From the UHGV virus genome UHGV-1333064: a stretch of DNA of 40,697 nucleotides. One strand, written 5' to 3'. Of this stretch, positions 1 to 40,697 are shown piece after piece. The notes below the pieces were generated by a model. The model worked only from the letters and a program-made list of their open reading frames with translations, was not told the DNA's origin and ran no database searches. The stretch's first letter is position 1; the number at the start of each line of letters is the position of its first letter. Position numbers and translations under genes: made by a program. This DNA is from a virus.

Positions 1-121
1 GTAGCGGCAGGAGTCTATGAACACGTTTCAGTGAAACCATTTAAGAAAGTGTTCTAATTTATTAGAAATTTGCACTTAAATCAAAAAGTTACGGACAATT
101 CAACCACCAATCAATAAATTA

Positions 122-156
122 AAGGGCACATTAAAGTACACAATATTTGTGCCCTT
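122..156 (-). terminator. candidate stem-loop downstream of the invertase gene
   Basis: 9-bp inverted repeat AAGGGCACA (122-130) / TGTGCCCTT (148-156) with a 17-nt loop, about 20 nt past the invertase stop; flanks are T-rich on both strands. The large loop makes it weak. Confidence 0.3.
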
Positions 157-175
157 CTCTGTTTCTTTCCCGTTA

Positions 176-724
176 TCAGCTAGCTGGAAACTTTTTATAC
201 AGAGTTGAGAGCCCTACTCCATACGTTTTTGATACGCTTTGTCGTGATTCACCGGTTGCCATCCGCTCCCCCATTTCCCTCCATTGCTCATCCGTGAACT
301 TAGGCCTGCGACCACCAACTCGCCCTTTTGCCCTGGCTACGGCCAGCCCTGCTAAGGTACGTTCGCTATTAAGATCAGATTCATATTGTGCTGCGGAAAG
401 GATGTTACGAAAGTTATAGCGGCCGCTGGCTGTTTTGAGATCCACGCCATCGGTAATACTGCGGAAGTTGATACCCTTTTCCTGTAACTGCTGGAACATC
501 AACAGCGCATGCAGAACGTTGCGGCCTATCCTGTCCAGCTTCCAGACCACCAGTTCATCCCCCGGCTGCATAGTGGCGATCAGCCGTTTTAGAACCGGCC
601 GATTCGATTTCCTCCCGCTGGCATGCTCTTCAAAAATTTTCTCACAACCCGCTGACTTGAGCGCCGTTAGTTGCAATTCAGTGTCCTGGTGGTTTGTTGA
701 TACTCGGGCATAACCGTAAATCAT
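176..724 (-). CDS. serine recombinase, DNA invertase (Hin/Gin/Cin/Pin family)
   Basis: Track ORF 176..883, trimmed to the internal Met of MIYGYARVSTNHQ (ATG 722-724) with AGGAG 7 nt upstream. Resolvase-type N-terminal catalytic Ser motif (YARVST), VWKLDRIGR, and a C-terminal HTH (LSTLYKK), as in DNA invertases. Confidence 0.9.
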   Translation of the reverse strand: MIYGYARVSTNHQDTELQLTALKSAGCEKIFEEHASGRKSNRPVLKRLIATMQPGDELVVWKLDRIGRNVLHALLMFQQLQEKGINFRSITDGVDLKTASGRYNFRNILSAAQYESDLNSERTLAGLAVARAKGRVGGRRPKFTDEQWREMGERMATGESRQSVSKTYGVGLSTLYKKFPAS

Positions 725-728
725 GGGA

Positions 729-755
729 TTTCTCCTGTTATGAAAACAGGAGAAA
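729..755 (-). promoter_or_regulatory. perfect 11-bp palindrome with 5-nt loop that contains the invertase Shine-Dalgarno
   Basis: TTTCTCCTGTT (729-739) / AACAGGAGAAA (745-755), loop ATGAA. On the minus-strand mRNA the 3' arm carries AGGAG, 7 nt before the invertase ATG. Confidence 0.35.
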
Positions 756-776
756 CGGCGAAGCATCACCAGATTT

Positions 777-1211
777 TTGATGGTTATAAAAAAGGTTGGT
801 TTGGGAGAAGGTTCGGCATTACCCGTTGGCGTGCCTGTTCCGTGGCCTTCCGCCACTCCGCCAACAGGCTGGCTGAAATGCAACGGTGCCGCTTTTTCTG
901 CTGAAGAATACCCGGAACTGGCGAAGGCTTATCCGACAAATAAAGTGCCTGATTTACGCGGTGAATTTATTCGTGGCTGGGATGATGGTCGAGGGATAGA
1001 TAGTGGCCGTGCATTGCTATCTGCGCAGGGAGGAGCAATCCAATCTCATACGCATTTATTAGCTGTCCGAGTTAGCGGGGCAACATCAGCTACCAGCGCA
1101 GATGATGTATTAAAAACCGGAGGCACCTCCAGTAGGGAAACTAATGCGACGGGTGGGACTGAAACAAGGCCGCGCAACATTGCATTTAACTACATTGTAA
1201 GGGCAGCATGA
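777..1211 (+). CDS. alternative tail-fibre C-terminal segment (silent orientation; expressed only after inversion)
   Basis: Track ORF begins at TTG. Protein has a tail-collar-like motif (PTGWLKCNGAAFSAEEYPELAKAY ... VPDLRGEFIRGWD). The frame is open across crossover site 784-809 and both junctions encode GLGE, so inversion would fuse it in frame to the constant N-terminus of the fibre gene. Confidence 0.55.
   Translation: MMVIKKVGLGEGSALPVGVPVPWPSATPPTGWLKCNGAAFSAEEYPELAKAYPTNKVPDLRGEFIRGWDDGRGIDSGRALLSAQGGAIQSHTHLLAVRVSGATSATSADDVLKTGGTSSRETNATGGTETRPRNIAFNYIVRAA
784..809. repeat. invertase crossover site, hix/gix-like (copy next to the invertase gene)
   Basis: TTATAAAAAAGG TT GGTTTGGGAGAA: 26 bp with 12-bp half-sites around a 2-bp core. 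The reverse complement of the right half (TTCTCCCAAACC) closely matches the left half of the site at 2581-2606, in inverted orientation. Same architecture as gix/hix/cix sites. Confidence 0.6.
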
Positions 1212-1819
1212 TGACCACAAAAAAAATCACTTTGGATGAAAACGGTTTTGCCACTGAGGCTGGATTTATTACCGTTTACAACTACAATGGCGAAACGCGT
1301 GAATATATTGGTTCATCCGTTGAATATCTGCCGGTTGGCGCTGGCGTTCCAGCTAATTCCTGCGTTGATGCGCCGGGCAGCAAAAAAGAAGGTTTCGCAA
1401 TCTGCCGCAAGGCTGATTTAACCAGTTGGGAATACGTTGCTGACCATCGTGGCGAAACTGTTTACAACACTGAAAACGGCGATGAAATCACCATCACCGA
1501 AATTGGCGAATATCCTGAAAATACAACCACTATCGCCCCGTTAACTCCATACGATGAATGGGATGGTGAGAAATGGGTGACAGATACTGAGGCACAGCAT
1601 AGCGCCGCAGTAGAAGCGGCAGAAGCACAGCGCCAGTCACTGATTGATGCTGCAATGGCTTCGATCAGTCTGATTCAGCTGAAATTACAGGCCGGGCGGA
1701 AGCTGACGCAGGCAGAAACCACCCGGCTTAACGCCGTGCTTGATTACATTGACGCGGTGACGGCAACAGATACGAGCACCGCGCCGGATGTCATCTGGCC
1801 TGAACTGCCGGAGGCGTAG
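1208..1819 (+). CDS. tail fibre assembly protein (Tfa-like), partner of the alternative fibre segment
   Basis: 203-aa ORF directly downstream of and overlapping (ATGA) the alternative fibre segment. C-terminal region resembles phage Tfa chaperones and the C-terminus of the convergent Tfa at 1791..2234 (both end ...APD(V/I)(I/E)WP..P..). Confidence 0.7.
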   Translation: MMTTKKITLDENGFATEAGFITVYNYNGETREYIGSSVEYLPVGAGVPANSCVDAPGSKKEGFAICRKADLTSWEYVADHRGETVYNTENGDEITITEIGEYPENTTTIAPLTPYDEWDGEKWVTDTEAQHSAAVEAAEAQRQSLIDAAMASISLIQLKLQAGRKLTQAETTRLNAVLDYIDAVTATDTSTAPDVIWPELPEA

Positions 1820-2234
1820 GCCATTCAATATCTGGAGCACTGGAGGTATCAACCAGTTCCAGTGCGTCCAGATAATCCAGCCACAAATTATATTGCGCCA
1901 GTTCCTCACCTTTCAGGCGACCAATCGCTGCTTTACCAGGCCATTGCTTACTGTATATGTATTCGTTGACCTGATTAATCAATTGCTGCTTTTCCAGTTC
2001 GGCTGCGGCAATTTGTTCCTCATGAGTTGGCGGTGGAATTTCCCCCCAGGTGGGAAGGCCATCATCACCCGCGATGCGTACTTTCCCTTGCAACGTTCTG
2101 TCTTCAATAAATTCCAGGTAAGTGTCATATGTCACTTCGACAATATCAGCAAGTTCCCATCCGGCCTGTTCATATTTCGCCACATCATTTTTAGCGAAAA
2201 AACTATTATTTGAGGCGCTATAAACCATTTCCAT
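1791..2234 (-). CDS. tail fibre assembly protein (Tfa-like), currently in expressed orientation
   Basis: 147-aa ORF immediately downstream of the fibre gene on the minus strand; Tfa-like C-terminus (LVDTSSAPDIEWPTPP). Confidence 0.75.
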   Translation of the reverse strand: MEMVYSASNNSFFAKNDVAKYEQAGWELADIVEVTYDTYLEFIEDRTLQGKVRIAGDDGLPTWGEIPPPTHEEQIAAAELEKQQLINQVNEYIYSKQWPGKAAIGRLKGEELAQYNLWLDYLDALELVDTSSAPDIEWPTPPAVQAR

Positions 2235-2235
2235 A

Positions 2236-2880
2236 TTAATACCCTACTGCAATATAAAAAACTGATTCACCAGCGTCCTGAGAACCTACCCCCGGAACGC
2301 CAGACCAGGCTTTGTTAATGAATGCAAAACCGGTATTACTCAGATCAGATGCTCTGTACATCGGGCTGAACATCCAGTAGTTGGCTCCATATGTTTGTCC
2401 GAAAACAATGCCATAGCACTGATTTGTAAATGGCGTAGAAAATAATTTTCCACCAGTACCAGCGATAGTCCCGAATCGCATCTGGAACCCATTCGGGAAA
2501 TTAATTCCGCCTGCCGGTGAAGACCAGTAAGACATATCAGGTATCTGATTATCTCCTGTGCCCACATCCCTTTTCGCCGCTTCTCCTAAACCAAGGTTTG
2601 TGGTAATCGCTGTCGCCAGCTTTGCCACCAGTCCATCAACGTCACCATCATCGAGCGCGTCCAGTTCGGCGTTCGCGATAAACTGCCCCAGTACAGCCGC
2701 CATCGTCGACGGTTGGCGCAGCGCTTTACTGACCTGTGCGCTGGATGCTTTACCCGAGGAGAATCCTTTCTTCAGTGCGGTTAGCGTCTCCCATTCCTCC
2801 TGCGAGGTAACATTTGCATTAGCATCTGTCGCAAACGCTTTAAAATCATTAGTTCCAGCCATTAAAGTAATCTCCCCCAT
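2236..2880 (-). CDS. tail fibre protein (constant N-terminus of about 95 aa joined to the current variable C-terminus)
   Basis: 214-aa ORF after the I-like gene. Crossover site 2581-2606 lies inside it and encodes ...AITTNLGLGE...; downstream sequence is Gly-rich, typical of a fibre tip. Confidence 0.75.
   Translation of the reverse strand: MGEITLMAGTNDFKAFATDANANVTSQEEWETLTALKKGFSSGKASSAQVSKALRQPSTMAAVLGQFIANAELDALDDGDVDGLVAKLATAITTNLGLGEAAKRDVGTGDNQIPDMSYWSSPAGGINFPNGFQMRFGTIAGTGGKLFSTPFTNQCYGIVFGQTYGANYWMFSPMYRASDLSNTGFAFINKAWSGVPGVGSQDAGESVFYIAVGY
2581..2606. repeat. invertase crossover site, hix/gix-like (copy inside the tail-fibre gene)
   Basis: TTCTCCTAAACC AA GGTTTGTGGTAA; resembles the invertase-family consensus (TTCTC..AAACC..GGTTT) and is inverted relative to the 784-809 copy. 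Confidence 0.6.
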
Positions 2881-3578
2881 GCGCCGTCATCAAAACCGGC
2901 GATGTATTCGTTATCCATGTCAAATCCAAAGAATTTTGTTCCTTCGGACGGTGTTTCGACCGAGGGTGTTTCAACGCCGCCAGCCCATACACCAGCAGCT
3001 TTAACGGTGAGATAACCCTGTTTGATAGCGGCTATCAGTTCGAGTGACACATCAGAAATATCAGTCTCGGGAAAAACCCAGACCGATATCGTCATGTCCT
3101 GGTTATCGACGATCTGCATCTTCAGTCCAGAGCCTGCGGTAGCAGCGTCAAGGATGGGAGGCAGAGAGTCGTTCCGACCATCCCAGTTGTTGATAGCGAT
3201 TTTCGCTTTCAGAATGATGCGGTACGTCTCATCACTCAGCGTCGTATAGCCAGAATCAGGATCATATGGCCCTTGCCAGATGCCCTGGTCATATCCGAGC
3301 CCGTCAGTGTCCCAGCTGAAATAAACGCCGCTAATTGGCTGGCTGACTATACGACTACGCCCAATCCACAGGCCGAGGATATCGAGTTGCACGCCAACCG
3401 CCGTATCGATATCGAAGGCTGTTACAAGCCCTGACATAGTGCTGGACACATCAATCAGCGGGCGGGTGCTCAGATCTATATGGTCAAAAAAGAGTGGCTT
3501 GGTAGCGTGGTAGTTAGTGATCAGTTCGGTGTATTTGCTCATGAGGTCACCGTGATAGTGACGTGACTCGCAACGCAT
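2862..3578 (-). CDS. tail/baseplate protein, P2 gpI / Mu gp48-like
   Basis: 238-aa ORF between the J-like gene and the fibre gene, overlapping both; position and size fit the I-like baseplate wedge partner. Assignment is by synteny and recalled similarity only. Confidence 0.55.
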   Translation of the reverse strand: MRCESRHYHGDLMSKYTELITNYHATKPLFFDHIDLSTRPLIDVSSTMSGLVTAFDIDTAVGVQLDILGLWIGRSRIVSQPISGVYFSWDTDGLGYDQGIWQGPYDPDSGYTTLSDETYRIILKAKIAINNWDGRNDSLPPILDAATAGSGLKMQIVDNQDMTISVWVFPETDISDVSLELIAAIKQGYLTVKAAGVWAGGVETPSVETPSEGTKFFGFDMDNEYIAGFDDGAWGRLL

Positions 3579-4738
3579 GACGCAGATTCGTCATAAGCAA
3601 TATCGATATTTCCGCTTGCGACTGAGTCAGAGGATTTGCCGATGAGCAGCTCCTGAATGTCGTAATAGCGAGCACTGCCTCCGCTTACCACGCCAAGGTT
3701 TGCCGGGGAATAAATACGACTCAGCAGAACGTCGTCGCCAATTGTCAGGCCATTAATATAGCCGGCAACAGCCTGTTTGATCTGCTCGCCGATTTGAGAG
3801 GTATACCCGGTAAAAACTTTCAGGGTAATGGCTACGAAAATTGGCACATCGGTAGAGCGTGAAAAACTGATGACGTGAGGATTACCGTAAGTATCCGGCA
3901 CCGTGACAGAAGTTGTCCCGTAGGTTGCCGTTCCCTGTCCTTTATTCCCCCTGATGGTCTGGGCTATTTCGGTAACATCCCCACCATCGACGATGGCGGA
4001 AATTGAGTGCGGCGGCAGCCCGTTGCTGTCTGTTGTTCCTGTGTCGTTCTCATACAACTTGTGACGTGTCACGCCAGCAACGTTAGCTATTGCACCGTCG
4101 ACACCTTCAAACGGTGTGATCGATGGTAGCGCGACGCTTTGCCCCTGCCGAATGCGCAGCTCTGCGTCGGTTTCGGCTGGTGAACCGACAGTAGCCGAAG
4201 CTGGGTTGGTTACCGACACCCAGCCGCGAGTCGGTGTGTTAATGGTGGTAATAGTCCCGGCCATCGCCGCAACCGAACCGCTATTCGCACATGTGGCCGT
4301 CACCAGCACAGTACCATCAACGCCGATCGCTACACTTGCGGGAAAATTCCAGATAATGCCGTTTTTATCCCGTGCGGAGCCATTCGTGATAGTCGTGCCT
4401 GCCGTACCGGTTAACAGAAGGTCAGCAGTAGAGTTTGTCGCTACTTTTCGCGTGATCCCGTTAATTTTCACATTGCTGCTAAGCGCTGCGGCCTGCGCTG
4501 TCGTCGGTGAAAAAGAGTTGTAGATCCCGATAGCGGTGTTGTTAGCGTCATGCACCGCAAGAGCCACCAGCGCGACCATCTGCCCGTCTTTGCTGTCTGG
4601 TTCGAGGTAGGCATCACTACCGTAAATCTGCCTGAAATAGCTGGTCAGTGTATCTAGGATTGTCTGGTAATCAGGCGCACTAATCCCCTGGGCGGTTACC
4701 GTTGCCGATAGCCCCAGCGTGTCGAGGTTCAAAGCCAT
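3539..4738 (-). CDS. baseplate J-like protein (P2 gpJ / Mu gp47 family)
   Basis: 399-aa ORF directly downstream of the W-like gene in a W-J-I-fibre order. Confidence 0.65.
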   Translation of the reverse strand: MALNLDTLGLSATVTAQGISAPDYQTILDTLTSYFRQIYGSDAYLEPDSKDGQMVALVALAVHDANNTAIGIYNSFSPTTAQAAALSSNVKINGITRKVATNSTADLLLTGTAGTTITNGSARDKNGIIWNFPASVAIGVDGTVLVTATCANSGSVAAMAGTITTINTPTRGWVSVTNPASATVGSPAETDAELRIRQGQSVALPSITPFEGVDGAIANVAGVTRHKLYENDTGTTDSNGLPPHSISAIVDGGDVTEIAQTIRGNKGQGTATYGTTSVTVPDTYGNPHVISFSRSTDVPIFVAITLKVFTGYTSQIGEQIKQAVAGYINGLTIGDDVLLSRIYSPANLGVVSGGSARYYDIQELLIGKSSDSVASGNIDIAYDESASCVASHVTITVTS

Positions 4739-35649: not shown

Positions 35650-35823
35650 ATGGATAATCAGGATAATGAGTTAAGAAAGGTTGTTCAGGAACTTGCTGAT
35701 GAAGAAGGCATCAGCTTTTCCGATGCCCTAGATGTTTCGATTAAAGCGCTGCGTTATGAGGTAGAGCGCAGAAAATCGTTTAACGGTGAAGCTGCTTGTG
35801 ATGGCTCTGCAATTACTTCTTAG
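35650..35823 (+). CDS. small acidic hypothetical ORF (57 aa), not in the supplied ORF track
   Basis: ATG 35650-35652 to TAG 35821-35823, read by eye; its 3' end overlaps the convergent 92-aa gene by 11 nt. Weak Shine-Dalgarno, so coding status is uncertain. Confidence 0.25.
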   Translation: MDNQDNELRKVVQELADEEGISFSDALDVSIKALRYEVERRKSFNGEAACDGSAITS

Positions 35824-36091
35824 CCAAGTACCAAGAGGTGTCTGCGGCTTCGGAAACCAGTACGTAATAGCTTTGCTTTACACTACTAGCTATACCTCTG
35901 ACTTCCTCTCTAACGTTATATGCAGTTGATGTTTTTACGGTTGTATATTCAGCTGTTGGGAGGTTAAACCAAGTGCCATTACCATCCTGTATCTCACGCG
36001 AATAACCCTTTGCTTTCATCTTTTCATGAAGATTTTCATAGTCTTCAGAATCAGCGCCGCGCAACTCAACTCGAACAATATATCTTGCCAT
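35813..36091 (-). CDS. hypothetical protein (92 aa) at the rexAB-equivalent position
   Basis: Track ORF 35813..36232 trimmed to MARYIVRVELRGADSEDYENLHEKMKAKGY... (ATG 36089-36091) with AGGAA 7 nt upstream. Opposite strand to both cI and the early-left operon. Confidence 0.5.
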   Translation of the reverse strand: MARYIVRVELRGADSEDYENLHEKMKAKGYSREIQDGNGTWFNLPTAEYTTVKTSTAYNVREEVRGIASSVKQSYYVLVSEAADTSWYLAKK

Positions 36092-36106
36092 AAGAAGATT
36101 CCTATA

Positions 36107-36151
36107 TTGACTGTGGAATGAGCAACATATCAGTTTCCTTTGACTGTGGAA
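36107..36151. repeat. two direct 12-bp repeats TTGACTGTGGAA upstream of the 92-aa gene
   Basis: Copies at 36107-36118 and 36140-36151 (33-bp period), 16 nt upstream of the 92-aa gene start; each contains TTGACT. Confidence 0.3.
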
Positions 36152-36205
36152 AGCAAAGGGACACGGGCCGGGCGTGGATAAAAATCCCGGCACCAACCAT
36201 CGCAA

Positions 36206-36231
36206 AGCCGCCACCTGAGCGGCTTTTTTCA
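36206..36231 (+). terminator. intrinsic terminator between the immunity region and the early-left operon
   Basis: AGCCGC-CACCTGA-GCGGCT followed by TTTTTT. Confidence 0.5.
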
Positions 36232-36362
36232 TACCTAAGAAACTTCGCAGAGGTTTCTAAGTTATGAGACGGCGGCCATCCACCGCCCATTGAAACACTG
36301 AATAAATGCGTTGAAGTCTTGTATTAACCGTTCCGTTCGCCGCGATAAGGCCAAGAGGATTT

Positions 36363-36732: not shown

Positions 36733-36869
36733 TCAATCATCACCTGCTGCGCGCCGCGCAGAGCAAAGCAGCCATTGCCCTGTTTATCGGTGATGGCGCC
36801 ATGTGGATGGCAGCCTACGACGAAATGAAGGTTGCCATCGGTTATCCGTGGCATAGAAAAACAGCCTAA
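36729..36869 (+). CDS. small hypothetical protein (46 aa), not in the supplied ORF track
   Basis: ATG 36729-36731 overlaps the upstream stop (ATGA); read by eye as MINHHLLRAAQSKAAIALFIGDGAMWMAAYDEMKVAIGYPWHRKTA. Confidence 0.3.
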   Translation: MINHHLLRAAQSKAAIALFIGDGAMWMAAYDEMKVAIGYPWHRKTA

Positions 36870-36939
36870 TTCCCCTATTCAACCGATCGGCCTGGCTAAA
36901 AGCGGGCGGGATCTGCACATCCAAATTTCAGGAGAAACC

Positions 36940-37911
36940 ATGAGCGAAGTAATGGACTTAACTGTCATCGAAATCACGCCGGAGCAGGCGCCAGCGCTTT
37001 ACGTAGCGGGCGGCCTTGACGCTTACCTCGAGCAAATCCGCCAGGCAGTAAACGAAGTGCCGGACCTGTCAACGAAGAAAGGCCGTGACCGTGTCGCCTC
37101 TCTGGCGGCGCAGGTGTCGCGCAGCAAGACGGCAATCGAAAAGCCGGGGCGTGAGTACCTGAAGCGCCTGAAAGAGGCTGTGCGCCCCGCTGAGGCGGAA
37201 ATTAAGCGTTTCGTTGATGCCTGCGACGAGCTACGTGATGCCACCCGCCGCCCACTCACCGAATGGGAAGCCGAGCAGGAGCGCATTAAGGCTGAAGAAG
37301 CCATGAACGCGTTGCACGCCGAAGCGCTGGAAATGAACATCAAGTTCGATCAGGAGTTGGCGGCCAAGTTCGAAGCAGACCACGAAATGGCTCTGCTGAT
37401 GAACAAGGATTTCGACCGTGACCGCGAAGAGCAGCGCCGCCAGGCGGAACAGGCTCAACGTGAGCATGAAGAGCGCATTAAGAGTGAAGCGGCAGAGCAA
37501 GCCCGACGCGATGCCGAAGCGAAGCACAAAGCAGAGATTGAAGCCGCAGCGCGCCGTGAAGCTGAAGAGAAAGCTCGCGCTGAACTGGCGGAGCGCCAGC
37601 GCATTGAAGCGGAACAGCGTGCGGCACGCGAGAAGCAGGAAGCAGAAGCCCGGGCAGAACGCGAAAAAGCCGCGGCAGTGGAAGCTGAGCGCCTGAAGGC
37701 AAAACAGGCCGAAGATGCTCGCCTGGCCGAAGAGAAGCGCCTCGCCGATGAACAGGCAAAGCGCGAAGCTGACGTGAAGCACCGCAAGACGGTCGGCACC
37801 AACATCGTTAACGCGCTCACCAGCCACACCAGCTTAACCCGCGAACAGGCTATCGAAGTGCTCACCGCACTTAAAGACGACCTAATCCCCTGCGCAAAAA
37901 TTCATTACTGA
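36940..37911 (+). CDS. highly charged coiled-coil protein (Ala/Glu/Arg/Lys-rich)
   Basis: Track ORF 36832..37911 trimmed to MSEVMDL (ATG 36940) with AGGAGAAACC upstream. A roughly 170-aa stretch is almost pure A/E/R/K/Q repeats (REAEEKARAELAERQRIEAEQRAAREKQEAEARAEREKAAA). Confidence 0.5.
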   Translation: MSEVMDLTVIEITPEQAPALYVAGGLDAYLEQIRQAVNEVPDLSTKKGRDRVASLAAQVSRSKTAIEKPGREYLKRLKEAVRPAEAEIKRFVDACDELRDATRRPLTEWEAEQERIKAEEAMNALHAEALEMNIKFDQELAAKFEADHEMALLMNKDFDRDREEQRRQAEQAQREHEERIKSEAAEQARRDAEAKHKAEIEAAARREAEEKARAELAERQRIEAEQRAAREKQEAEARAEREKAAAVEAERLKAKQAEDARLAEEKRLADEQAKREADVKHRKTVGTNIVNALTSHTSLTREQAIEVLTALKDDLIPCAKIHY

Positions 37912-40158: not shown

Positions 40159-40697
40159 ATTACGGATTTGTAAGTGTTTGCGTTGAGCAATTCAATGAAG
40201 CGGTTAAGCTGCCACCCGCACACAATCCAGCATCACGAATTTGGCAGCGCCCGTTCCTTAAATGGGCTGGCGGCAAATATTCGCTGCTGCCGGAACTGGA
40301 TCGCCTGATCCCCGCAGGGAAACGCCTTATTGAGCCTTTTGTGGGTGGCGGCTCGGTGTTCCTTAACTCAGACAAGCACGAACGCNNNNNNNNNNNNNNN
40401 NNNNNNNNNNNNNNNNNNNNNNATCAGATGCTGGCGGTGGTCCCCGACTCGGTGATCTATGAGGCAATGAAGGCATTCAGGCATCTGAATGATGCCGAAA
40501 ACTACACGGTAATTCGTGAAGCATTCAACGCGCAGCGGCTGGATGCGGTCGAGCGCGCAGCAGCGTTCCTTTACCTCAACCGGCACTGCTTCAACGGGCT
40601 GATCCGTTATAACCTGGACGGTTTTTTTAACGTCGGCTTTGGGAAATATAAAGCGCCATATTTCCCGGAAGAAGAGATCAGGGCATTTAAGCGGAAG
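40155..40697 (+). CDS. dam: DNA adenine methyltransferase, Dam family (interrupted by the N gap, 3' end outside the window)
   Basis: Read by eye: N-terminus ...RPFLKWAGGKYSLLPELDRLIPAGKRLIEPFVGGGSVFLN (KWAGGK and FxGxGS SAM motifs); after the gap FLYLNRHCFNGLIRYNLDGFFNVGFGKYKAPYFPEEE, closely parallel to E. coli Dam. Frame is continuous if the gap is truly 37 nt. Confidence 0.8.
   Translation, partial: MNYGFVSVCVEQFNEAVKLPPAHNPASRIWQRPFLKWAGGKYSLLPELDRLIPAGKRLIEPFVGGGSVFLNSDKHERXXXXXXXXXXXXXQMLAVVPDSVIYEAMKAFRHLNDAENYTVIREAFNAQRLDAVERAAAFLYLNRHCFNGLIRYNLDGFFNVGFGKYKAPYFPEEEIRAFKRK
40386..40422. other. run of 37 N (assembly gap or masked bases) inside the methylase gene
   Basis: Literal n characters in the sequence. 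Confidence 0.98.

Follow-up and report, generated by a model that had tools for sequence, protein, structure and literature searches.

The window, the whole 40,697-nt stretch of DNA that was analysed, carries terminase, portal, capsid, DUF3383 (sheath-like), tape-measure and baseplate genes, and apparently represents a whole temperate, myovirus-like prophage of the Omnitron/SEN34 type. It resembles Citrobacter phage Omnitron, which is deposited as a circular 41.9-kb phage genome. The prophage integrates at yciI, where E. coli genomes carry the same prophage, and the genes described here sit at its yciI-proximal end. A search of the 40,697-nt window for a second copy of the att core found none, Rfam and tRNA scans of the window returned zero matches, and promoter and terminator counts for positions 1–3700 were no higher than in shuffled sequence. 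The locus contains the following features.

176–724, minus strand: serine DNA invertase, 182 aa, catalytic Ser9 (Pfam Resolvase 3.6e-39, HTH_7 1.5e-9).
728–756, minus strand: leader hairpin with a 12-bp stem, its 3' arm holding the Shine-Dalgarno AGGAG (-22.7 kcal/mol, z = -5.1).
757–770: smaller leader hairpin.
784–809: crossover site 1, TTATAAAAAAGGTTGGTTTGGGAGAA, core TT at 796–797, adjoining the invertase gene.
797–1211, plus strand: silent alternative fibre C-terminus of tail-collar type (Pfam Collar), StfE-like, 137 aa after crossover.
1208–1819, plus strand: Tfa chaperone for the collar-type end, TfaE-like, 203 aa (Caudo_TAP 8.2e-31).
1791–2234, minus strand: Tfa chaperone for the expressed end, TfaP-like, 147 aa (Caudo_TAP 3.5e-30).
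2236–2593, minus strand: expressed variable fibre C-terminus, gp53-like, 118 aa (PHROG 1396 tail fiber 6.8e-45, residues 95–208).
2581–2606: crossover site 2, TTCTCCTAAACCAAGGTTTGTGGTAA, core AA at 2593–2594, inside the fibre gene at the boundary of its constant and variable parts.
2594–2862, minus strand: constant N-terminal fibre part, the baseplate-attachment end (PHROG 11303 tail fiber 1.4e-36, residues 3–89).

The invertase consists of an N-terminal catalytic domain with the nucleophilic serine and a C-terminal helix-turn-helix, as in Hin, Gin, Cin and Pin (~185 aa), and Ser9, Arg42, Asp64/Arg65 and Arg68 are invariant in an alignment with Gin, Cin, Pin and Fin. Identity to Gin, Cin and Pin is only 52–55%, with a gapless alignment to Mu Gin (PDB 3uj3, 4m6f) at 52% and 55% identity to PinE. 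An annotated DNA invertase with 100% identity to this protein is encoded by phage mEp237, for which a literature search found no relevant paper, only unrelated DOI strings.

The preliminary description read the two sites as inverted copies carrying the invertase consensus, and this was borne out. Reverse-complemented, site 2 agrees with site 1 in 20 of its 26 positions, both consist of 12-bp half-sites flanking a common 2-bp core, and both match verified gix, e14 and P1 cix sites. Within positions 1–3000 no other inverted pair reached 20/26 matches (mean of 0.03 such pairs per shuffle, 30 shuffles). The longest exact run in the pair is 7 nt, hence a repeat search with a 9-nt seed missed it, and a direct match count and a consensus search replaced the default-seed search. 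The hix/gix-type consensus, TTCTCNNAAACCAAGGTTTNNGRTAA, matched only twice in 40,697 bases, at site 2 with 0 mismatches and at site 1 with 3, and in none of 100 shuffles (0 expected). The invertase-side half of site 1 is degenerate (CCTTTTTTATAA, read outwards from the core), and site 1 agrees with the pinE-proximal e14 site TTCTCCCAAACCAACGTTTATGAAAA at 22/26 positions by manual count.

Site 2 codes for ITTNLGLGE, and both sites encode the GLGE junction in the fibre frame, in line with the placing of site 2 at the constant/variable boundary in the preliminary description. The invertible segment between the cores spans 797–2593 (1797 bp, ~1.8 kb), with the invertase gene outside it. When this segment is flipped in silico the frame is kept; the silent cassette joins the constant part and a single continuous 233-aa open reading frame replaces the 214-aa one. 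Each fibre end is followed by its own Tfa gene, and the two tfa genes, both with Caudo_TAP domains, overlap by 29 bp tail to tail. The proposed exchange of the C-terminus together with its cognate Tfa is supported, while the figure of about 118 swapped residues describes the gp53-like end that leaves, the incoming tail-collar end having 137. Domain searches of both ends identified the silent one as a Phage Tail Collar (Pfam, E = 2e-15; PHROG tail collar fiber, 1.2e-74); on the expressed end Pfam Gp53-like_C was only sub-threshold (E = 0.0019), the PHROG tail fiber hit being the strong one.

The constant part lies outside the segment, is transcribed from the late operon and is 99–100% identical among E. 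coli prophages with different C-termini. Its start was previously placed at 2880, but ATG 2862 appears more likely from the sequence because it has GGGGAG 9 nt upstream, overlaps the DUF2612 gene as TAATG and is the start annotated for G3/10, LR-33 and TOK-001, while the fourth relative examined, PSJ-22, uses the upstream ATG. The alternative C-terminus had been called start-less; it does lack a Shine-Dalgarno sequence, but an in-frame ATG is present at 780–782, and relatives have this reading frame annotated as a CDS.

The arrangement is that of known fibre switches, as had been proposed by reference to Mu G, P1 C and e14 P. Among the closest is the e14 P segment with PinE in E. coli K-12 (stfP-tfaP / tfaE-stfE / pinE), whose gene order is identical and which shares the short fibre (~210 aa), the crossover at NLGLGE and the 29-bp convergent tfa overlap. 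The collar cassette is 62% identical to StfE, its chaperone 79% to TfaE, and the 147-aa chaperone is 56% identical to the C-terminal part of TfaP. We rejected the possibility that the window is e14 itself, given the 55% identity of the invertases, different baseplate genes and integration at yciI. Unlike in e14, which is defective and lies at icd, the prophage is apparently complete, neither the constant fibre part nor the expressed variable end is related to StfP, and the baseplate neighbour is DUF2612 rather than YmfQ/DUF2313. Mu G/Gin and P1 C/Cin have the same layout: the segment holds two C-termini and a chaperone for each, the constant fibre N-terminus is encoded outside it, the invertase gene lies just beyond, and the 26-bp sites follow the same consensus; the Mu gene order is identical, although Mu and P1 fibres and segments (~3 kb) are larger. 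Salmonella Hin/hix, the best-studied mechanism (PMC3798978, PMC4513852), shares the recombinase family and site architecture, but Hin flips a promoter whereas a coding end would be flipped here. Furthermore, P2-like prophages such as that of E. coli SF-468 carry a cassette ~90% identical to 796–2599, with homology ending within the two sites, but on a long P2 H-type fibre and with a different invertase protein (WP_000905071.1).

Both orientations were sought, and they occur between strains at the same locus. The segment is flipped relative to the window in E. coli LR-33, PSJ-22 and TOK-001, with flanks 97–99.9% identical, and has the window orientation in G3/10 and Omnitron. Strand changes against the relatives fall at 796–810 and 2580–2594, within both sites. 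The closest case of the same sequence in two orientations comes from a second prophage type at yciI (NCTC_13148 versus KMi029), where a 1417-bp gapless block is flipped at 95% identity between flanks that are 99.8% identical. The cassette pair of the window, searched as 3 kb in native or in-silico-flipped form, reached at least 80% coverage in none of 5,426 complete E. coli genomes. Cassettes differ by 5–23% between strains with near-identical flanks, so cassette replacement is confounded with orientation in these comparisons.

Very probably, then, the locus switches its tail fibre by means of the invertase, in the manner of e14 P, Mu G and P1 C. Reading of the fibre gene would begin at ATG 2862 on the minus strand, within the late baseplate operon, with the first ~90 fibre residues fixed and everything from the GLGE junction onwards supplied by the 1797-bp segment. 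Invertase dimers would bind both sites, cut the central 2 bp, rotate and religate, flipping the segment. In the present orientation the 118-aa gp53-like end would be made, followed by the TfaP-like chaperone gene, and in the flipped one the 137-aa tail-collar end, followed by the TfaE-like chaperone gene, so a lysogen population would release virions with two receptor specificities. The parts, the kept frame and both orientations among strains are directly observed; from them we infer catalysis by this invertase, inversion at some present rate and a change of host range.

A frozen relic, in which the module was inherited but no longer flips here and strain differences reflect old inversions or replacement of whole cassettes through recombination with other phages, seems unlikely. 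Such a history would fit the cassettes being a diversity hotspot (77–95% identity inside versus 99.5–100% outside), the frameshifted or stop-containing tfa genes of several relatives, and mEp237, where all that is left is the invertase, a single site and a 66-bp remnant of the cassette; no enhancer is recognisable either. However, the five reading frames and both sites of the window are intact with matching core dinucleotides, the invertase protein is 100% identical across prophages in either orientation, and the points at which the strand switches lie precisely inside the 26-bp sites, a pattern that replacement by itself would not yield. The preliminary description's word "complete" is too strong in one respect, as every named element is present and intact but a canonical Fis enhancer is not recognisable. 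Less probable still is that the main benefit is the host's, as suggested by analogy with the homologous e14 P segment, where inversion by PinQ makes a chimeric fibre, StfE2, that blocks adsorption of phage T2 (PMC12529663). The 62% identity of the collar cassette to StfE points that way, but e14 is a defective prophage. Here the fibre belongs to a full late operon in a prophage that is apparently complete, so a role in virion host range is the simpler interpretation, and both roles could be combined.

Where the invertase does depart from the classical systems is in features linked to activation by Fis. The classical enhancer comprises two Fis sites ~47 bp apart, ~100 bp from one crossover site, in the 5' end of the invertase gene (PMC3798978). 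No canonical Fis enhancer was recognisable in the invertase gene of the window. A G-N13-C 15-mer is kept at gene nt 22–36, but overlaps the catalytic-serine codons. At gene nt 71–85, the G-N13-C pattern of gin, cin, pinE and fin gives way to CAGCGGGTTGTGAGA in the window, and the 5' G is found in no clade member. A search with the degenerate Fis motif G..YR..W..YR..C was too loose to decide, and the level of synonymous-codon conservation did not clearly mark an enhancer anywhere along the gene, whether in the clade or among the classical invertases.

Judged by its sequence, the invertase is a member of a widespread clade with a different helix E, which adjoins fibre/Tfa/Tfa/fibre-fragment modules with two such sites in Salmonella, Serratia and Morganella, site-1-type sites also lying upstream of the invertase genes there. 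The helix-E segment FFFHVM..LAEME is conserved in classical invertases and keeps the dimer inactive until Fis activation (PMC4513852); in the window it reads YNFRNILSAAQYES, and all 120 of 120 clade representatives have Y103, N104, R106, I108, A111 and Y114. Residues uniquely conserved in Fis-dependent invertases are Hin K47, R/K48, K/R51, Q151, R154 and L155 (PMC3798978). At these positions the window invertase keeps K46 and R47 but differs at A50, E150, E153 and R154; counting helix E, Hin F105, H107, M115, K51, Q151, R154 and L155 are replaced by N, R, Y, A, E, E and R. Position 50 is basic in 3/120 clade representatives, while residues of the Hin R154 and L155 type occur at positions 153 and 154 in 44/120 and 55/120, the window having E and R. 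Gin and Cin retain the residues linked to Fis activation. Because the equivalents of Hin K51, Q151, R154 and L155 are missing, activity is not to be assumed from Hin and Gin biochemistry.

Every clade locus examined has the leader hairpin, whereas the regions upstream of gin, cin, pinE and fin lack it. Ten of its 12 pairs are invariant and one is compensatory, and with that single pair the covariation is not significant. Its burial of the ribosome-binding site suggests that it may limit translation of the invertase. One tentative, and on balance doubtful, reading is that this widespread enterobacterial fibre-switch clade might dispense with classical Fis/enhancer activation and be checked by low translation instead. 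Pointing to Fis-independence are the invariant helix E unlike that of Hin and Gin, with Asn at Hin Phe105 (Hin F105N inverts without Fis; PMC4513852), the missing equivalent of Hin K51, one of three basic residues of helix B, the missing Fis-contact pair R154/L155 in the window member and the lost signature of the second Fis site; the clade-only conserved hairpin points to the check on translation.

The switch of the window is an ordinary, well-bounded example of an already known phage mechanism, and its divergent invertase clade is the sole point of wider interest; should the clade not need Fis, it would parallel in nature the hyperactive Hin and Gin mutants obtained by engineering. Large surveys had flagged DUF2612 neighbours as inversion targets (PMC9881135), and the Omnitron/SEN34-like group with its DUF2612 baseplate, which had no published description of such a switch, now has one example. 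Both orientations have to be considered when the fibres of such prophages are annotated or their hosts predicted, and the segment between the sites is a sharply bounded exchange cassette, which P2-like phages share.

The tail-fibre inversion switch reported at this end of the window in the preliminary description is correct and well bounded, and its class is textbook. Its features are as follows.

176–724, minus strand: serine recombinase (invertase), 182 aa, with Resolvase and HTH_7 domains
728–756, minus strand: larger hairpin of the invertase leader, 12-bp stem, −22.7 kcal/mol, z = −5.1
784–809: crossover site 1, on the invertase side, TTATAAAAAAGGTTGGTTTGGGAGAA
Site 1 to 1211, plus strand: silent fibre C-terminus with a Phage Tail Collar domain, 62% identity to e14 StfE
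1208–1819: Tfa, 203 aa, following the silent collar end, 79% identity to TfaE
1791–2234: Tfa, 147 aa, TfaP-like, convergent with the 203-aa Tfa
2236 to 2862/2880: expressed fibre gene, upstream of the 147-aa Tfa
2581–2606: crossover site 2, inside the fibre gene, TTCTCCTAAACCAAGGTTTGTGGTAA

The invertase gives gapless alignments with Mu Gin (52%) and e14 PinE (55%), and also with crystallised Gin (3uj3, 4m6f); site 1 is placed ~60 bp upstream of its start codon. PHROG matches divide the expressed fibre exactly at the crossover, residues 3–89 falling in one tail-fibre family and 95–208 in another, and the expressed end matches Pfam Gp53-like_C below threshold only. When 797–2593 (1797 bp) was inverted in silico, the 214-aa open reading frame (ORF) was replaced by an uninterrupted one of 233 aa that carries the collar end; the earlier figure of about 118 exchanged residues holds for the outgoing end, while the incoming end has 137. 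Two details of the preliminary description needed revision. Position 2880 is a poorer fibre start than the ATG at 2862, which is preceded by GGGGAG at a distance of 9 nt, overlaps the DUF2612 gene in a TAATG and is the annotated start in three of the four relatives examined (E. coli G3/10, LR-33 and TOK-001; in PSJ-22 it is the upstream ATG). The silent cassette, described as start-less, has an in-frame ATG at 780 that lacks a ribosome-binding site; in relatives this ORF carries a CDS annotation. The convergent tfa genes share 29 bp at their 3′ ends (1791–1819), exactly as in tfaP/tfaE of e14, hence a single stretch of DNA encodes both C-termini (…PD[VI].WP…), one on each strand.

The claim of two inverted crossover sites was borne out. 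The reverse complement of site 2 is identical to site 1 at 20 of 26 positions, and the central dinucleotides, TT at 796–797 and AA at 2593–2594, represent the same core in inverted orientation. The pair escaped a seed-based repeat search of the window, having no exact run longer than 7 nt, but it is the sole inverted pair with at least 20/26 identity in the first 3 kb (mean of 0.03 in 30 shuffles). Scanning all 40.7 kb of the window with the consensus of hix/gix/cix/pix sites gave matches at sites 1 and 2 only, with 0 and 3 mismatches, and 100 shuffles gave no match. The consensus was compared with real sites, namely Mu gixL and gixR, both e14 sites in K-12 and one P1 cix; counted position by position, the invertase-proximal site agrees with its e14 counterpart at 22/26.

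The window begins within the 3′ end of yciI, and the tonB–yciI–invertase junction is common to many complete E. coli genomes. Four genomes covered at least 90% of the junction flipped in silico (collar end plus constant part), whereas none covered 80% or more of the native junction, and no complete genome had a near-complete match to the 3-kb sequence in either its native or its flipped form. In LR-33, PSJ-22 and TOK-001, the flanks (window 1–810 and 2580 to ~3600) align on the same strand at 97–99.9% identity, while all of 796–2594 aligns on the opposite strand. The orientation of the window also occurs in E. coli G3/10 and Citrobacter phage Omnitron, hence both orientations, which the preliminary description had proposed to look for in a lysogen population, are seen between strains. 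Prophages of a second type in yciI, with a YmfQ-type baseplate, likewise show the flip: between E. coli NCTC_13148 and KMi029 the flanks are 99.8% identical, while a gapless block of 1417 bp, 95% identical, is inverted and has its ends at the site centres. Flipped blocks between same-strand flanks in two prophage types provide strong comparative evidence for sites 1 and 2 as the predicted inversion breakpoints.

The comparison is limited in that cassettes of the yciI prophages differ in sequence as well as orientation (77–95% identity inside vs 99.5–100% outside); the two sites therefore bound a hotspot of recombination and diversity. In E. coli SF-468, a P2-like prophage served by another invertase has a cassette ~90% identical to the whole of 796–2599, hence what lies between the sites acts as a module that can be exchanged.

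This high cassette turnover, together with the existence of decayed relatives, would fit a frozen relic, yet the parts of the switch seen in the window are intact and an identical invertase protein is found in prophages of both orientations, and we consider a relic quite improbable. A host-defence role resembling that of e14 StfE2 (PMC12529663) is conceivable and compatible with inversion, but would be less economical for an apparently complete prophage and is highly improbable. We regard a working or recently working serine-invertase switch as very probable. The invertase would exchange the receptor-binding fibre end together with its chaperone, and this exchange would give phage progeny of mixed specificity.

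The prophage encodes terminase, portal, major capsid, DUF3383 (sheath-like), tape measure with SLT domain and spike proteins, baseplate J and DUF2612 wedge proteins, as well as Q antiterminator, CI/Cro-like, RecT and exonuclease genes. "DUF2612 domain-containing protein" is strongly enriched beside programmed-inversion targets (Milman et al. 2023, PMC9881135). The tail region is 93% identical to Omnitron over 76% of the first 12 kb, with Salmonella phage SEN34 a more distant relative. The attachment core at 39–57 (window 36–57) comprises the last yciI codons and stop (ATTTAAGAAAGTGTTCTAA); no second copy occurs within the window, which places the other end of the prophage past 40,697. Window 36–810 (attachment core, invertase and site 1) is 97% identical to lambdoid phage mEp237, the homology starting at the attachment core, and the mEp237 invertase lies directly before an annotated phi80-like attP at the same place. 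In mEp237, the identical invertase and one crossover site are accompanied by a gp53-like cassette stub of only 66 bp (region 4364–4440); a second site or invertible segment is not evident in mEp237, hence its invertase appears orphaned.

Elsewhere in the window, 37 N (40387–40423), presumably masked sequence in the source record, interrupt the gene for a Dam-like DNA methyltransferase at the window's far end. The immunity region and the recombination genes are separated by a 139-aa ORF (35813–36232, minus) that matches Pfam GhoS, an antitoxin endoribonuclease, weakly (E = 2e-4, 21.6 bits vs cutoff 21). A 359-aa ORF (36832–37911, plus) upstream of the RecT and exonuclease genes gave no Pfam match and is coiled-coil-like, being very rich in Glu, Ala, Lys and Arg. 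A GGGCACA...TGTGCCC hairpin (123–155) with T-rich runs on either strand, located between yciI and the stop codon of the invertase, looks, by eye, like a two-way terminator; it was not among the terminator-scan predictions.

The window's invertase stands apart from Gin, Cin, Pin and phage Fin (52–55% identity), within a large clade whose 120 cluster representatives (at least 79% identity) come from Escherichia, Citrobacter, Salmonella, Serratia, Morganella and others. In every case examined, clade invertases adjoin a fibre/Tfa/Tfa/fibre-fragment module with two such sites. Helix E reads YNFRNILSAAQYES in the clade vs FFFHVMGALAEME in the classical enzymes, and Y103, N104, R106, I108, A111 and Y114, invariant in 120/120 representatives, correspond to F104, F105, H107, M109, L112 and M115 of Hin, the Salmonella flagellar invertase. 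In Hin, the dimer is kept locked in its inactive state by F105 and M109, and inversion no longer needs Fis when F105 is replaced by any of several residues, Asn among them (PMC4513852). Residues uniquely conserved in Fis-dependent invertases are Hin K47, R48 and K51 (helix B) and Q151, R154 and L155 (Fis contact) (PMC3798978); the corresponding residues in the window's invertase are K, R, A and E, E, R, respectively. Clade position 50 is basic in 3/120, and the R154 and L155 equivalents occur in 44/120 (position 153) and 55/120 (position 154), hence this feature is variable in the clade rather than absent. A G-N13-C 15-mer is present at gene nt 71–85 in gin, cin, pinE and fin, ~48 bp from a first at nt 22–36, where the two Fis sites of the Hin enhancer lie; the 5′ G at nt 71–85 is missing in the window and its clade.

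The invertase leader contains two adjacent hairpins (728–770, minus strand). The larger one buries the Shine-Dalgarno sequence AGGAG, which forms its 3′ arm; this hairpin was found in all clade loci examined, across genera, but the leaders of gin, cin, pinE and fin do not have it. Within the clade it is conserved largely as unchanged sequence, one pair being compensatory, and a palindromic site bound by a protein would be an equally good reading of it. Helix E, the Fis-linked residues, the enhancer signature and the leader hairpin together would allow a different mode of control, a tentative reading that we hold to be rather unlikely. Most of the interest of the finding lies in this divergent invertase clade and its leader hairpin.
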